DNA of 20,000 nt from an uncultured virus (IMG/VR IMGVR_UViG_3300044491_001439). Taxonomy: Duplodnaviria; Heunggongvirae; Uroviricota; Caudoviricetes; Kyanoviridae. Position 1 is the stretch's first letter; each line of letters opens with the position of its first letter. Of the stretch, positions 1 to 18,439 are shown in pieces. The translations under genes and the position numbers were made by a program. Where the stretch lies: IMG/VR virus record IMGVR_UViG_3300044491_001439; one strand, 5' to 3'. A model generated the notes under the pieces. It ran no database searches. It saw only the letters and a program-made list of their open reading frames with translations, and was not told where the DNA came from.

Positions 1-1565
1 GTTGACGGGAAGAAGTTATCAGGAGTCTCTTCGCCAGGGAATTGATTTCCAGGTGGTTTAGAACCACCGGTAGGAATCTCCGGAGGATTCCAAGTAGGAA
101 CACCACCAACAAAAATAACTTTAGTTGGTTCCGGATCCAAATAATCTAAAGATTCTGGACAATTCAAACGCTCTCCAGTATCACCGTCTTCAATTTGACC
201 TATTAACTTATCAAGGAAATCTTCCTCGTCATCATCAGTACCACAATCATTACATTCTTTAGTGGATTCAGCACACTTTGAACTCGGTCCACTACAGTTG
301 ATGCCAAGGAAAGACATTACTTTTTGGATTGCTGATGATACTAGGTCAACAGAACCACCAATAAGAGATAAAATTTGTTGTATAGGTCCTAGAACTGTTG
401 ATATCAACCCATCAATCAACGACAAGATTTGATTAAGAATACCATCAATCAAGTTTTTGATTGCACATGCTGCTGGAGAGAAAATCTCCATAATGAAATC
501 AAATAATAAGTTCGTCAACCAACTTACTAACTTATCAATCAAATCCTCAATAGCACAACCTAATGCTTGCAAGATTTTATCGAGTACTTTCTTGATTCTT
601 TTTAAGATATTACCTTTAGGTTTAACAGTATCAAAATCTGATTTTGGATCTACAGGTACTTTTTCTTTCTGCTCTTCTGGTACGTTGAGACCCAGTGCTG
701 CTTTAACTAAAAATTCAATACCTTCACGAATTTTTCTAATGATTTCTGACTGAATCCTACCGACAAGACTTCTTACAAGTCTTGTAACTCTACCAATATG
801 ATAACGAGCAATCGCTACTTTATCATACAAGAATCCATTTACTTTACTGACATAAAAACTTCCAAGTTGACCACCAGATGCCTGGTTTGCTGCCAACATA
901 TCACCCACGATGTTAGTCAGTTGCTTGCCGAAGTTACTCTCCGTACCGCAAGTAGGGTTAGCGAGGGTAACACAAGTCTTCATTCCAATAGGGTTTGCTT
1001 CACTGTGCTTACCACGTAATGCAGCGATGATAGCGGGAGCACCATCCTCTAGATTAGCACGACAAGCATCAGGTTCACCACCATCACAATTCCCCCCAGT
1101 TTCTTCGTCTACACCACCTTGTCTATCTTGTGAACGATGTGTCTGTGATTTAGTTTTTGGATCTGTATAGGTAACTAATCCTTTACCTTCACCGGAGTCT
1201 TGTGGTTCATCAAGTTTTACTTCAGTCGCACCAGCAGTGTGACCAATCGATCCCATAATGATTGGCTTTTGCTTATCATTATCAAGGAAGAATCCGGTTA
1301 CCCAGTTACCTGCACGTAGTTCTACGGACGCACCCGTAACGCCACCGTCACTAAATGGTGTCGTAACCGGCAACATTACCTGTGCCCAAGGCAAATCCTT
1401 GGTAGGAGTAGCGTCCTTTAGGTTATGTCCTATAATTCTAACACGATACCTTCCAGACTCTTTTGGGTCATCAGTATTAGATGTTTCAACCTGACCAATC
1501 CACCAATGAAATCCATCTTCACCAACCTGGTGAGTCTGCATTAATGATGATAATACGGGATCCAT
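1..1565 (-). CDS. gp5: gp5-like baseplate hub/spike protein, N-terminal part (continues past the left window edge)
   Basis: Not in the ORF track. ATG at 1565 reads MDPVLSSLMQTHQVGEDGFHWWIGQVETSNTDDPKESGRYRVRIIGHNLKDATPTKDLPWAQVMLPVT...WVTGFFLDNDKQKPIIMGSI, matching the gp5 OB-fold motifs (WWIGQV, GRYRVRI.G, LPWA.V..P, GFFLD....P.I.G). A late promoter motif lies just upstream. Confidence 0.9.
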   Translation of the reverse strand, partial: MDPVLSSLMQTHQVGEDGFHWWIGQVETSNTDDPKESGRYRVRIIGHNLKDATPTKDLPWAQVMLPVTTPFSDGGVTGASVELRAGNWVTGFFLDNDKQKPIIMGSIGHTAGATEVKLDEPQDSGEGKGLVTYTDPKTKSQTHRSQDRQGGVDEETGGNCDGGEPDACRANLEDGAPAIIAALRGKHSEANPIGMKTCVTLANPTCGTESNFGKQLTNIVGDMLAANQASGGQLGSFYVSKVNGFLYDKVAIARYHIGRVTRLVRSLVGRIQSEIIRKIREGIEFLVKAALGLNVPEEQKEKVPVDPKSDFDTVKPKGNILKRIKKVLDKILQALGCAIEDLIDKLVSWLTNLLFDFIMEIFSPAACAIKNLIDGILNQILSLIDGLISTVLGPIQQILSLIGGSVDLVSSAIQKVMSFLGINCSGPSSKCAESTKECNDCGTDDDEEDFLDKLIGQIEDGDTGERLNCPESLDYLDPEPTKVIFVGGVPTWNPPEIPTGGSKPPGNQFPGEETPDNFFPS

Positions 1566-1585
1566 ATCAAACAGCAGTTACGTAT

Positions 1586-1592
1586 TATTTAT
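1586..1592 (-). promoter_or_regulatory. T4-type late promoter (ATAAATA) for gp5
   Basis: ATAAATA on the minus strand about 20 nt upstream of the gp5 ATG; resembles T4 TATAAATA. Confidence 0.7.
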
Positions 1593-3004
1593 TAGGCAGT
1601 TTCTGCCTTTGAATCTTCATCTCTTCGACCATAAGAATCACGAATCAACGTAAGATGGGTATTACCTTTAATATTCTTGAAATCATAAGCGTGATTCAGT
1701 TTAGAAATCAGATACACACCACTATGTTCTGGATCATATGGTTCTTCTTTTCTGTCAGGTGTGGCAATCATATTAGGAATAAAAATCTCAACTGTTTGTC
1801 CTACCTTGAGTTCAGGATGCAATGGAATAGTAATCTTTGCTTCTTGATTATTAATACTATTCATCCGAGAAATAGACTGGGAAATATAACTCTTCTGCCA
1901 GTCAGGGAACTCGGCAGCATTACTACCACCATCTTTTTTCTCTGGAGATGCGATTTCTTTTTCATTAAACCAAGTTTCATGATCAATCAATGCTGACATG
2001 ATTCTTGTTGGTTTAGATGCTAAATCAGATTGACCTTTCAACAAACCAGATTGAGAACCAAGATGACTCTGATCTTTAAACGAATCTTTTAATGAAAATG
2101 CAAACTCTTCATAAGAACCTGTGCTGTAGTTATAGAAACATACTACGGAAGAGAATGTTCCCATTCTCAACTTGGTGAGCATATCAATCTCTTGTTTAAA
2201 ATCAATAGATAAAATCTTATTTAATTTAGATTGTCCAAGTTCATTATTCTCTTGATAGAGTTGTATAACTGGAGGATTTTTCTCAAGAGAGTTTAATCTA
2301 TCAATAGAGTTAAAATTATATCCATCATAGTTCTCATAGAATAAGTATCCGGCACTGCCACTCATCTTACCGTAAGAACCAGAGTCTATGTCAGCAACAC
2401 CACCTTGTCCATCCGTTCCACCACCAGCACCACCGCCTGATGCAGTACTACTATTATTTGCATCTTGTGCTACTGTTTTTTGTAACAGTCCGCTGATGAT
2501 TGAAAAAGGAGTCTTCTTTCCTGGATGAAATCTAACTTTAAATAGTGTCGGATCTGTCTTAATTTCTTTCTCTGTAGATAAGTTTTCTTTCAACAAACTA
2601 CTAACAATAGCATCAGGTTTACCTGTCAGTAGTTTAGGTAATCTGATTGTCTCATTAATCAATGCCTCTTTGGATATCATACCAAGTTTGTATACTTGTA
2701 CTCTATCAGCACTGAATCTATCAAAGACTCTAAACACCTTAAAGTTATATACAATCTCTTCTTCATCTTGTCCTTCAAGAACAATCTCGATATCTTCATA
2801 CCCCTGAATAGGAAGACTTGCAATCAGGTTTCCACCAGAGTCAGAAATAACAGCAATAGCCTCAAGAGTAGGCATTGCGATATTCTCAAAGTAATAAAAG
2901 TTCTGCACCAAATCAGTGATGACTTTCTCATCACCACTGACAGAAGTAATAGTTACTTTCTTTGGTTTAAAACTAGAAGCGTATTGTAAATCTTCTTGTG
3001 CCAT
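1592..3004 (-). CDS. Baseplate hub structural protein, probably gp27/Mu gp44-like (470 aa)
   Basis: Directly upstream of gp5. Contains YFENI...IsDSG...LPIQGYE, GYLFYENYDGYNFNSID and C-terminal LKVGQTV...SGVYLISKLNHAY...TLIRDS, typical of contractile-tail hub proteins. Confidence 0.65.
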   Translation of the reverse strand: MAQEDLQYASSFKPKKVTITSVSGDEKVITDLVQNFYYFENIAMPTLEAIAVISDSGGNLIASLPIQGYEDIEIVLEGQDEEEIVYNFKVFRVFDRFSADRVQVYKLGMISKEALINETIRLPKLLTGKPDAIVSSLLKENLSTEKEIKTDPTLFKVRFHPGKKTPFSIISGLLQKTVAQDANNSSTASGGGAGGGTDGQGGVADIDSGSYGKMSGSAGYLFYENYDGYNFNSIDRLNSLEKNPPVIQLYQENNELGQSKLNKILSIDFKQEIDMLTKLRMGTFSSVVCFYNYSTGSYEEFAFSLKDSFKDQSHLGSQSGLLKGQSDLASKPTRIMSALIDHETWFNEKEIASPEKKDGGSNAAEFPDWQKSYISQSISRMNSINNQEAKITIPLHPELKVGQTVEIFIPNMIATPDRKEEPYDPEHSGVYLISKLNHAYDFKNIKGNTHLTLIRDSYGRRDEDSKAETA

Positions 3005-17531: not shown

Positions 17532-17556
17532 AAAAAAGAGGGGTAACAACCCCTCT
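17532..17556 (-). terminator. Rho-independent terminator after the DUF4278-like gene
   Basis: Minus strand AGAGGGG-TTGTTA-CCCCTCT running into a T tract. Confidence 0.85.
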
Positions 17557-17573
17557 GATTATTTACAAGTAGA

Positions 17574-17741
17574 TCACTTACTGTATGTACGTCCACGATA
17601 ACAGAATGTACCGTGTGTTTCTTTCGATTCGACACATCGTGTATCATACTCAACACCACGATATGTGGCGTGACTGATCTGTGCGTCGTGAAGTGCAGAT
17701 GCCTTGTTGATCTGCTTCTTGATCATTTGCAGTGTGTTCAT
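17574..17741 (-). CDS. DUF4278-like small protein (55 aa, two YRG motifs)
   Basis: MNTLQMIKKQINKASALHDAQISHATYRGVEY...FCYRGRTYSK with an AGGAG Shine-Dalgarno. YRG..Y motifs are characteristic of DUF4278, a family known to follow glutamine riboswitches. Confidence 0.75.
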   Translation of the reverse strand: MNTLQMIKKQINKASALHDAQISHATYRGVEYDTRCVESKETHGTFCYRGRTYSK

Positions 17742-17787
17742 GAGTCTTCTCCTGAAGTTGGGGTGAGGTTTTAAGTCTCCCGTTCCT

Positions 17788-17955
17788 TCAGTCGTTTGCG
17801 TCCCAGTACCACTCACATTCTGGTGATGAGTCCTTAAGGGTCTCGACCAACTCTATCTTCAATAGAGAAGATAGATTCGCATTGTTCTCAATCTTCAGCA
17901 TAATAGCATCAGTTTGAGTACATGAGAGTGTTGTATAGAATAATAGTTCTAGCAT
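17788..17955 (-). CDS. 55-aa ORF embedded in the second aptamer
   Basis: Below the ORF-track cutoff. Reads MLELLFYTTLSCTQTDAIMLKIENNANLSSLLKIELVETLKDSSPECEWYWDAND*, with GGAG about 10 nt upstream. The start overlaps the P2 5' strand and the stop overlaps CGACU-GAA. Confidence 0.7.
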   Translation of the reverse strand: MLELLFYTTLSCTQTDAIMLKIENNANLSSLLKIELVETLKDSSPECEWYWDAND

Positions 17956-17999
17956 GGGATGAACGCTCCGTTCCGCGACTTACTTGCGTCCCCTAGATG

Positions 18000-18007
18000 T
18001 ATAAATA
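18000..18007 (+). promoter_or_regulatory. Exact T4 late promoter TATAAATA for the HNH gene
   Basis: TATAAATA 11 nt upstream of ATG 18019, inside the imperfect inverted repeat CTAGATGTA...TACTTCTAG (17993-18014). Confidence 0.8.
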
Positions 18008-18018
18008 CTTCTAGTTAT

Positions 18019-18399
18019 ATGAGACAGATGGACATTAGACCAATACCTTCTTATCCTGGTTACTTTGCCGATTCCGATGGTAACATCTGGAGTGAGCGTT
18101 GGGGTGAGAGAAAGAAACTCAAACCACACGATAATGGTAGAGGTAGGTTTGGAATTAATATCTGTTACAATCAGAAGAGAACTTATATAAAAGTTCACAG
18201 ATTAGTAGCAGAAGCATTCCACGGATTTGCTGGTGATGAAGTGCATCATATTGATGGCGATCCATCTAATAACAAACCCGATAATCTAAATCCTTTATCT
18301 AAAGAGGATCATATTGATATGCATCACAATAAAGAAGAAAGGATTAGAAAAGCCATCCGACTTTTACAATCAGAAGGTTATACGATCATTGGGGGATGA
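18019..18399 (+). mobile_element. NUMOD4-HNH homing endonuclease gene (I-HmuI-like, 126 aa), antisense to its neighbours
   Basis: NUMOD4-like RPIPSYPGYFADSDGNIWS and HNH motif VHRLVAEAF...VHHIDGDPSNNKPDNL. It is the only credible plus-strand gene in 13-20 kb. Confidence 0.88.
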
Positions 18400-18410
18400 A
18401 CGATGGTATT

Positions 18411-18439
18411 ATTATACCATAACTATTTAGATGTGTCAA
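18411..18439 (-). promoter_or_regulatory. Consensus sigma70 promoter TTGACA-N17-TATAAT, with a CTAAATA late-like motif in the spacer
   Basis: -35 at 18439-18434, -10 at 18416-18411; predicted +1 near 18404, the first base of AUCGUUCA. Confidence 0.9.

Follow-up and report, generated by a model that had tools for sequence, protein, structure and literature searches.

A putative homing-endonuclease gene in the P2 loop of a glutamine-riboswitch-like aptamer of a T4-like cyanophage

How does a gene come to lie within the loop of a small regulatory RNA element, and can the RNA still fold around it? The question is raised by a 20,000-nt stretch of DNA from the uncultured virus IMGVR_UViG_3300044491_001439 (hereafter, the window, to which all coordinates refer), which is part of a 91.7-kb viral contig and encodes T4-like cyanomyovirus genes, including those for ThyX and RNase H, on the minus strand. 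An earlier note, made from the letters of this DNA, had proposed that an HNH nuclease gene uses the P2 loop of a glutamine-riboswitch-like aptamer as an insertion site and homes on the conserved aptamer sequence. The comparative evidence described here supports that proposal. We put at roughly 80% the probability that the 398-bp insert is a free-standing homing-endonuclease element, encoding a small I-HmuI-like nuclease of the HNH_3 family, which colonises the P2 terminal loop of a glutamine-riboswitch aptamer.

The insert and its carriers

The riboswitch leader follows a sigma-70-type promoter (Table 1), called a consensus promoter in the earlier note, which matches at all 12 positions, with a spacer of 17 nt and TG ahead of the -10 element. 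The RNA is predicted to start at about 18404, six bases past the -10 element, with AUCGUUCAUCCCC, the 5' half of the aptamer (aptamer 1), and the distance from the -10 element to the first aptamer base is the same in phage S-MbCM7 and in loci L005, L088 and L180. The 3' half, GGGGACGCAAGUAAGUCGCGGAACGGAG, resumes at 17993, where it had already been placed. Between the halves lies the insert with its antisense HNH gene, of which only the upstream end had to be moved, by one base, from 18390 to 18391. The boundaries were placed by sequence anchors (an alignment of the whole leader with MAFFT misplaced the 5' half of the window), and they fall precisely within the hairpin loop after CGUUCA, that is, inside P2, in agreement with the original description.

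The open reading frame (ORF) of the HNH gene spans 17959-18399 on the plus strand, with the likely start at ATG 18019 or 18028; database relatives are annotated from either of two starts. The final two codons and the stop fall within the aptamer 5' half, and the stop codon TGA (18397-18399) is, as previously noticed, formed by aptamer bases, being the complement of UCA in CGUUCA. The protein matches HNH_3 of Pfam (PF13392; E 7.2e-11, 42 bits; cut-off, 24.8) and HNH endonuclease families of PHROG (best, phrog_59, E 2e-26), and residues H76, H77, D79, N85, N89 and H98, which include the catalytic His and Asn, are unchanged across three clusters of related proteins. Of the label NUMOD4-HNH that the gene had been given, the HNH part stands, whereas NUMOD4 has no Pfam match in this protein at E <= 0.1; the N-terminal 50 residues align with the N-terminal region of I-HmuI. 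The latter (1U3E) is the only solved relative found by sequence (phmmer E 9.3e-4, residues 6-101 against 3-99) and the top Foldseek match (E 3.9e-3, template modelling score 0.59) of an AlphaFold model with a mean pLDDT (the model's per-residue confidence) of 64.7, built from a 5-row alignment, a structural likeness that we grade as weak. The HNH insert is present in a single copy in the viral record. Rfam places no intron family at gathering score in the window, nor at E <= 10 around the insert, so that no surrounding group I intron was detected, and the flanks are aptamer halves. On sequence, the gene is classified as a free-standing homing endonuclease of the HNH_3, I-HmuI-like type; its product is presumed to be an active nuclease with the aptamer DNA as its target.

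A second copy of the insert was found at the same site in locus L005 (= record L086), where it is identical to that of the window in 394 of 398 nt. The flanks of the two copies are 55-76% identical (upstream 100 nt, 66/120; the small downstream frame ORF55, 115/174; the following gene for an IF17-like protein, 128/168). At the protein level, identity is 49% for ORF55 and 96% for the HNH nuclease, and P2 is closed by a C:G pair in the window and by a U:A pair in L005. In a metagenome scan, the known contig L005 was the sole hit. The insert is also present in contigs of public sequencing runs from four studies, one contig per run, with 2-8 differences. In two of these runs, X6 and X2, further contigs join 17993 to 18393 with 3 letters between, skipping 399 bases, or 17990 to 18395 with 10 letters between; these are empty alleles, and they occur in the same runs as the insert-bearing contig. 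All runs were available as assembled contigs, which carry no strand, RNA ends or expression level, and whose uncovered parts say nothing on absence. In the 422 matching isolate records the HNH gene is absent, and every HNH match there is below 60% identity. The site is thus polymorphic for presence or absence of the insert among close relatives, at one exact position, and the insert is more conserved than its flanks, from which we infer that it spreads by homing.

The insertion-free homologous alleles implied by the original reading exist: they were found in phages S-MbCM7 and S-RIM44, in most of the contigs described next and, as the joined forms, in the insert-bearing runs. S-MbCM7 provides the best DNA match reaching the insert among 50,697 phage records. 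The match stops at 17992, one base before the boundary, and its allele consists of the promoter followed by AUCGUUCAUCCC-AUUA-GGGACGCAAG, with the loop CCC-AUUA-GGG and the aptamer sequence GGGACGCAAGUAAGUCGCGGAACGGAG after AUUA. Eighty viral contigs were fetched via ORF55, and 64 of them could be parsed (the other 16 loci were not parsable by the sequence patterns used). The aptamer is contiguous in 57/64 and carries the HNH gene in 0/64; six of the remaining parsed contigs have a 66-aa sense ORF in the loop, and one has about 95 extra bases behind the aptamer.

Relatives of the HNH protein form only three clusters among 5.8 billion proteins, at 98, 68 and 52% identity. In all three subfamilies that could be verified in DNA (window/L005, L087/L088 and L089), the gene occupies the P2 loop of a glutamine aptamer in antisense orientation; the latter two are diverged members of one and the same HNH clade (52-58% amino acid identity). 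In both L087/L088 and L089, the HNH gene sits between CGUUCAUCC and GGACG(G/C)AAGUAAG...GGAACG, upstream of a DUF4278-type gene. The L087/L088 protein is 95% identical to the third cluster, and its background is another T4-like cyanomyovirus; DSL-LC02 is the empty counterpart of L088 (CCC-UAU-GGG). The L089 gene adjoins sequence like that of cyanopodovirus S-CBP4 and podovirus DNA polymerase genes, on a podovirus-like contig. The C-termini of the closest cluster read IIGG, IIEG, IIG, IIRR or IIEDERW and those of the third cluster VIPPG, which is what reading into UCAUCC and varied P2 strands would give. Beside the more distant HNH genes (30-40% identical), no aptamer halves were found at 11 loci.

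Identity and folding of the interrupted aptamer

Is the interrupted element a glutamine aptamer? Rfam detects none in the window, either at gathering score (35 bits for RF01739, Glutamine; 33 bits for RF01704, Glutamine-II) or at E <= 10, and RF01739 has no match over the whole 91.7-kb record. The miss in the window is explained by the covariance model itself, because a 398-nt loop is too long for its approximately 55 positions to span. In place of the window with the insert deleted, a natural counterpart is available in L030 and five identical alleles, which have the window's own stem around a 5-nt loop (CCCC-AUUGA-GGGG) and differ from the window in the loop alone, the entire 5' half being the same. 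L030 scores 30.1 bits against RF01704 and 29.7 bits against RF01739; the S-MbCM7 allele aligns with RF01739 from end to end at 30.4 bits (E 0.0027), and the S-RIM44 allele reaches 28.8 bits against RF01704. Glutamine-model matches were obtained in 6 of 20 scanned loci, all below the gathering scores (23.6-30.1 bits).

The core blocks CGUUCA, ACG-G/C-AAGUA and GGAACG follow one another in the correct order in the window, both halves equal those of L030 and S-MbCM7 outside the loop, and the alleles of L030 and S-MbCM7 can be aligned with the Rfam consensus over its full length. When 18 insertion-free alleles were used to build a covariance model, its sole significant hit in the window was 17966-18005, which covers the 3' half (33.1 bits, E 6.3e-9). 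In the RNAalifold consensus of 18 insertion-free alleles, P1 is invariant, P2 contains three double-change pairs, and there is a third short helix; given that P1 never varies, it provides no covariation evidence either way. Because the insertion-free alleles are sub-threshold, we file aptamer 1, on its sequence, as a divergent, sub-threshold variant of the glutamine riboswitch and a putative ligand binder. Glutamine aptamers of T4-like cyanophages score low in general (23.6-33.1 bits in loci L001, L002, L007-L085 and L103-L182, under the gathering scores), so that standard annotation overlooks them.

The closing helix of P2 persists in all four HNH-bearing loci, with five of five positions paired in each (UCCCC/GGGGA, UCCCU/AGGGA, UCCGG/UUGGA and UCCUU/AAGGA). 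Across 13 distinct split five-pair stems, 63 of 65 cells are paired, compared with 48 on average and at most 57 in re-dealt controls, none of which (0/2000) reached 63. We read these counts as a sign that selection keeps P2 closed across the insert, which does not in itself prove ligand sensing.

In the minimum free energy (MFE) structure of the 439-nt leader, P1 and P2 are kept and P2 is lengthened by an irregular helix of the insert ends (z = -4.7). The two insert termini, of 45 nt each, are joined by 32 end-to-end pairs in the window, by 33 in L088 and by 12 in L089. After shuffling of the insert, the mean is 1.4-2.9 such pairs, and the observed number is reached in 0/60, 0/60 and 3/60 cases, respectively. 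The riboswitch-sense strand folds more stably than the antisense strand in L088 (-94.5 against -85.6 kcal/mol) and in L089 (-121.7 against -114.9 kcal/mol). The odds that aptamer 1 still functions with the insert in place are about even.

The end of each insert next to the 3' half contains a look-alike of the aptamer 5' half, ..UUCAUCU.. (window 17994-18005; L089 840-905; in L088, close to the start of the HNH gene). This look-alike is complementary to the start-codon region of the HNH gene and may be a chance resemblance, a relic or a functional stand-in. In L089, where the 3' part of the aptamer is canonical and the HNH start region is duplicated, this local pseudo 5' half raises the score against RF01739 to 39.9 bits, above the gathering score of 35.

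The tandem leader and its nested genes

The span 17781-18439 had been described as a single aptamer locus. Its upstream part is indeed aptamer 1 with the insert, but 17781-17965 belongs to a second aptamer that the description had not included, and the P2 loop of this aptamer contains ORF55 (Table 1).

Table 1. Features of the riboswitch leader and its operon, in the order of transcription on the minus strand
Feature	Position	Strand	Details
Sigma-70-type promoter of the riboswitch operon	18411-18439	minus	-35 TTGACA, 18439-18434; -10 TATAAT, 18416-18411
Aptamer 1, 5' half, AUCGUUCAUCCCC	18392-18404	minus	P1 5' strand, 18402-18398; P2 5' strand, 18396-18392
Mobile insert filling the P2 loop	17994-18391		398 bp; boundaries set against the second copy (L005)
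HNH_3 homing-endonuclease gene (putative)	18019-18399	plus	126 aa + stop; antisense to the riboswitch
TATAAATA, possible T4-type late promoter of the HNH gene	18000-18007	plus	12 nt before ATG 18019
Aptamer 1, 3' half, GGGGACGCAAGUAAGUCGCGGAACGGAG	17966-17993	minus	P2 3' strand, 17993-17989; P1 3' strand, 17973-17969
Aptamer 2, 5' half, CGUUCAUCCC, then AUG of ORF55	17953-17965	minus	Nearly invariant in 80 contigs
ORF55 (phrog_504), nested in the aptamer 2 P2 loop	17788-17955	minus	55 aa; E 5.8e-25
Aptamer 2, 3' half, UGGGACGCAAACGACUGAAGGAACGGGAG	17777-17805	minus	The homologous half in L088 belongs to a contiguous second aptamer
Likely expression-platform helix	17752-17791	minus	CUGAAG 17791-17786 / CUUCAG 17757-17752; encloses GGAACG of aptamer 2
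IF17-like small protein gene	17574-17741	minus	55 aa; two YRG motifs
Intrinsic terminator closing the operon	17537-17556	minus	8-pair stem, 4-nt loop, T run

The contiguous second aptamer of L088 scores 33.1 bits against RF01739. The stop codon of ORF55, UGA, lies inside the 3' half of aptamer 2, within UGGGACGCAAACGACUGAAGGAACGG; in S-CAM3 and S-CAM1 the counterpart of ORF55 stops earlier and the 3' half is unchanged, and run X9 contains an aptamer 2 allele in which a UUCG loop replaces ORF55. The stem of aptamer 2 is UCUAUG/CAUAGA in the DSL-LC02 clade, compared with UCCCA/UGGGA. Relatives of ORF55, encoded in 340 viral contigs, are 49-91% identical, with synonymous changes evident in the DNA; the marker proteins used to locate aptamer loci have relatives in 340 and 407 viral contigs. 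Downstream, the CUGAAG/CUUCAG helix overlaps the Shine-Dalgarno sequence AGGAG (17753-17749) of the IF17-like gene and covaries across contigs (CUAAAG/CUUUAG, L006-L085), a change that turns the ORF55 stop UGA into UAA. This helix is likely an expression platform, like the second hairpin of Glutamine-II.

Where the 3' half of aptamer 1 abuts the 5' half of aptamer 2 (17953-17993), a GAACG-GAG-CGUUC hairpin could form, which would rival both aptamers and mask the GGAG ahead of the ORF55 start. In run X9, an RNA library, the summed contig depth over 17752-18003 amounts to tens of thousands on the two aptamer blocks, compared with 0-3,100 on the coding parts; this depth comes from strandless contigs of many phages and is a mere hint of leader abundance in RNA, not evidence of transcription.

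The IF17-like protein matches phrog_545 (E 2.7e-36) and, slightly under the Pfam cut-off of 25.3 bits, DUF4278 (E 4.1e-5, 24.3 bits). In PMC6212724, DUF4278 is described as part of the glutamine-synthetase inactivating factor IF17, and the association of glutamine riboswitches, often in tandem, with DUF4278/IF17-like genes is established there and in PMC2864571. Glutamine riboswitches in T4-like cyanophages are mentioned in two genome papers (PMC9964418, PMC9602691). The operon, sigma-70-driven, headed by two tandem aptamers and containing the nested ORF55 and a putative glutamine-synthetase inhibitor, is probably an early phage unit that shuts down the host glutamine synthetase in response to glutamine. 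For this reason the locus would bear on nitrogen control in ocean cyanophage infection. Upstream of the riboswitch promoter, L005 has an ORF (1290-1780, minus strand) that by eye resembles a small heat-shock protein gene; in the window, phrog_485 and DUF6433 genes occupy that place.

Nested genes are frequent in these leaders. In a second survey, of 80 loci, 37 have tandem contiguous aptamers and seven a single aptamer; an ORF is present in aptamer 1 only in seven loci, in aptamer 2 only in 20 and in both in five, a nuclease-like ORF lies between the aptamers in two, and the upstream DNA is absent in two. The nested sense ORFs start in the P2 5' strand and stop in or slightly past the 3' strand. 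An aptamer 1 with a sense ORF of about 66-70 aa in the P2 loop was found in L003 (S-CAM3), L004 (S-CAM1), L006, L008, L015, L016, L024 and L052, and further in L115, L123, L125-L128, L158, L162, L167, L169, L176 and L177. Its stems are, for example, CUUAUG...CAUAAG and CCUAUG...UGAAUAGG, and the L006-type ORF belongs to phrog_6471.

Other nuclease-like genes also occur in the leader. L180 (371-961) and L182 encode a 196-aa sense ORF between the aptamers that weakly matches phrog_314 ('homing endonuclease', E 1.8e-5) and phrog_10820 ('HNH endonuclease') and reads through all of aptamer 2 to the GACUGA stop of ORF55; a remnant of it, consisting of the last codons, lies between the aptamers of L025. 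A GIY-YIG identity of the L180 ORF was entertained as an impression and set aside, given that there was no supporting match. In L062 (1108-1690), a third aptamer behind ORF55 holds a 182-aa endonuclease VII-like sense ORF (phrog_1035, E 1e-17) in a P2 loop with an 11-pair closing stem; TATAAATA occurs within a hairpin directly upstream of this ORF. None of ORF55, the 66-aa ORF and the two nuclease-like ORFs (L180, L062) has a Pfam match, and their labels come from PHROGs alone.

Taken together, these arrangements raise the possibility that the P2 loop of cyanophage glutamine aptamers is a general gene slot, with the aptamer folding round inserts of 140-550 nt, clamped by P2, and glutamine gating translation of the nested ORF. 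Translation of the nested frame (ORF55, the 66-aa ORF or the approximately 70-aa ORF of the DSL-LC02 clade) would unfold the aptamer together with the helix by which the ribosome-binding site of the IF17-like gene is masked. At least three families of homing endonucleases would exploit the slot and may have been the vehicles by which the nested genes arrived. We advance this idea tentatively, at somewhat less than even odds. The gene-in-loop architecture of the aptamers is the more far-reaching lead and, if the idea is true, would amount both to a type of riboswitch architecture and to a way of gaining genes of which we found no description.

Competing explanations and known systems

The favoured explanation can be formulated as follows. 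In a mixed infection, the nuclease would nick or cut insertion-free aptamer DNA, and the element-bearing genome would serve as the template for repair, so that the gene is copied into the loop. The core blocks of this DNA, CGTTCATCC and GGACG(C/G)AAGTAAG, hardly vary among cyanophages, being required by the RNA; only the P2 loop is free in length and sequence, so that the insertion spares every conserved aptamer nucleotide. The gene, antisense to the riboswitch, has a candidate late promoter of its own and takes its stop codon from the aptamer; the complementary insert ends extend P2, and hence the aptamer halves could still meet in the sense transcript, with sense and antisense transcripts presumably separated in time. 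Homing on the aptamer is supported by the 99% identity of the insert within flanks of 55-76% identity, by the two further HNH subfamilies at the same position of other glutamine aptamers, by the C-termini of relatives that read into the aptamer 5' half, and by the two unrelated nuclease families that share the leader.

Alternatively, the gene may home as proposed and the insertion may disable aptamer 1, its loss being cheap thanks to the second aptamer or to a dispensable operon; the loop would then be a frequent point of cutting and repair and not a functionally neutral site. A 398-nt loop closed by only 5 + 5 base pairs invites this view, as do the rarity of element-bearing alleles, the preference of both the lineage covariance model and Rfam for the local pseudo 5' half at the insert end over the distant true half, the strand-symmetric end-to-end pairing in the window, and the single aptamer in 7 of the 80 loci of the second survey, which indicates that one can suffice. 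We nonetheless consider it rather doubtful. The halves are intact in 4/4 element-bearing loci, from three subfamilies about 45% apart in protein, with compensatory closing pairs; L089, with its single aptamer, bears the element between perfect P1 and P2 partners; and in L088 and L089 the predicted fold is more stable for the riboswitch-sense strand than for its antisense. Moreover, sense ORFs of 140-220 nt occupy the same loops in hundreds of phages, with the halves conserved and covarying, so that long loops are compatible with retention of the aptamer. Far less probable is that the HNH gene is neither selfish nor mobile, being a domesticated nuclease or an antisense regulator, the late transcription of which silences the early IF17-like operon. 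Its antisense orientation in 4/4 loci and a candidate late promoter that opposes the early promoter would fit such a role, which is hard to reconcile with the sporadic distribution of a nearly identical insert in diverged flanks, with its absence from the 422 isolate records (HNH matches there < 60%) and from 57/64 parsed contigs, with element-free alleles in the same samples, or with the sense orientation of the other nuclease families in the same leader. It is similarly improbable that the insert moved by other means, as an element resembling a miniature inverted-repeat transposable element (MITE) or through illegitimate recombination at the hairpin, with the HNH gene as cargo and not engine: despite the complementarity of the insert ends over about 45 nt (32-33 pairs), a gap-free search for inverted repeats gave four short internal pairs and no long terminal repeat, no target-site duplication was seen at the junctions, the insert has no transposase, and the complementary ends differ in sequence between subfamilies, the HNH gene being the shared part.

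Several observations weigh against the explanation by homing into an aptamer that remains foldable. Rfam sees no glutamine aptamer in the window, and all insertion-free alleles of the lineage are sub-threshold (23.6-30.4 bits). The HNH genes of the window and L005 differ in five codons, all non-synonymous and none synonymous, so that, small as these numbers are, this youngest pair gives no sign of purifying selection. Element-bearing alleles are rare (0/64 parsed loci; one low-depth contig per run), a pattern compatible with a recent invader but also with one that does mild harm. DNA was read for four element-bearing loci, the other contexts being deduced from protein C-termini. The late promoter that had been assigned to the gene exists as a motif, TATAAATA, which we take to resemble cyanomyovirus late promoters, but its count in the 20-kb window is no higher than chance (three copies against 1.63 expected; 41/200 shuffles reach three), and no perfect copy was seen ahead of the L088 or L089 HNH genes; it stays a candidate. 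A 527-nt contig of run X9 (17962-18402) passes both promoters and is strandless, so that neither transcription nor its strand is shown. As for the fold, P1 and P2 close in the MFE structures of 35-44 of 60 shuffled-insert controls, and their presence in the predicted structure is therefore not diagnostic; the end-to-end pairing of the window is equal on the HNH-sense strand (32 pairs on each strand) and could act in the HNH mRNA, or be what is left of a long P2 stem, instead of rescuing the aptamer.

Homing endonuclease genes persist where insertion is cheap, namely, in self-splicing introns and inteins or in intergenic gaps. The riboswitch-loop lineage would represent a third solution, in which the host element is unspliced and its conserved parts are uninterrupted. 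The target of the nuclease would be held constant across distant phages by selection on RNA function, and a metabolite-binding aptamer, small as it is, may accommodate loop inserts of great length or be organised around them. For riboswitch searches, the implication is that standard covariance models miss all split copies found here, the contiguous cyanomyovirus copies being sub-threshold as well. A small nuclease and a conserved RNA-gene target of 20-30 bp make the proposal readily testable at the bench. The earlier note knew of no described example, and likewise, no published homing endonuclease gene inside a riboswitch was found in the full-text literature searched, the coverage of which leaves out many subscription papers. 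The combination points to a previously undescribed landing site for homing genes.

Among characterised nucleases, I-HmuI, the HNH nickase of a Bacillus phage intron, shares with the window protein the N-terminal beta region, the HNH_3 motif and the nature of a mobile phage nuclease. It differs in being encoded by a group I intron that splices itself out of a protein gene and in its C-terminal DNA-binding domain (174 aa, compared with 126 aa for the window protein), whereas the window gene lies antisense in an unspliced RNA element with no intron match in Rfam. Group I introns, such as T4 td, carry homing-endonuclease ORFs in peripheral loops. As in the td-type introns, an ORF here occupies the loop of a structured RNA, the core helices are intact, and the DNA target is conserved for function; in contrast to them, the RNA is a putative ligand-sensing aptamer and not a ribozyme, the insert is never removed from the transcript, and the ORF is on the opposite strand.

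Both free-standing and intron-borne nucleases of cyanophages are described in PMC6083498 and PMC3428280, the former including F-CphI, a free-standing homing endonuclease beside psbA in cyanophage S-PM2. The HNH lineage resembles F-CphI and the Seg and Mob proteins of T4-like phages, which belong to intronless homing, in being free-standing, sporadic among close relatives and equipped with a promoter of its own (a candidate in this case), and resides in a T4-like cyanophage setting. However, those genes sit between protein genes and cut neighbouring coding sequence, whereas the HNH genes analysed here lie inside a cis-regulatory RNA element, and three subfamilies hold to one structural position. 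Finally, the leader shares with the glnA RNA (RF01739) and the Downstream-peptide/Glutamine-II RNA (RF01704) the core, P1 and P2, the tandem order and probably also the place before a DUF4278-like gene, and departs from them in that the cyanomyovirus aptamers are sub-threshold and their P2 loops hold genes, the HNH gene in antisense and ORFs of 50-66 aa in sense orientation.

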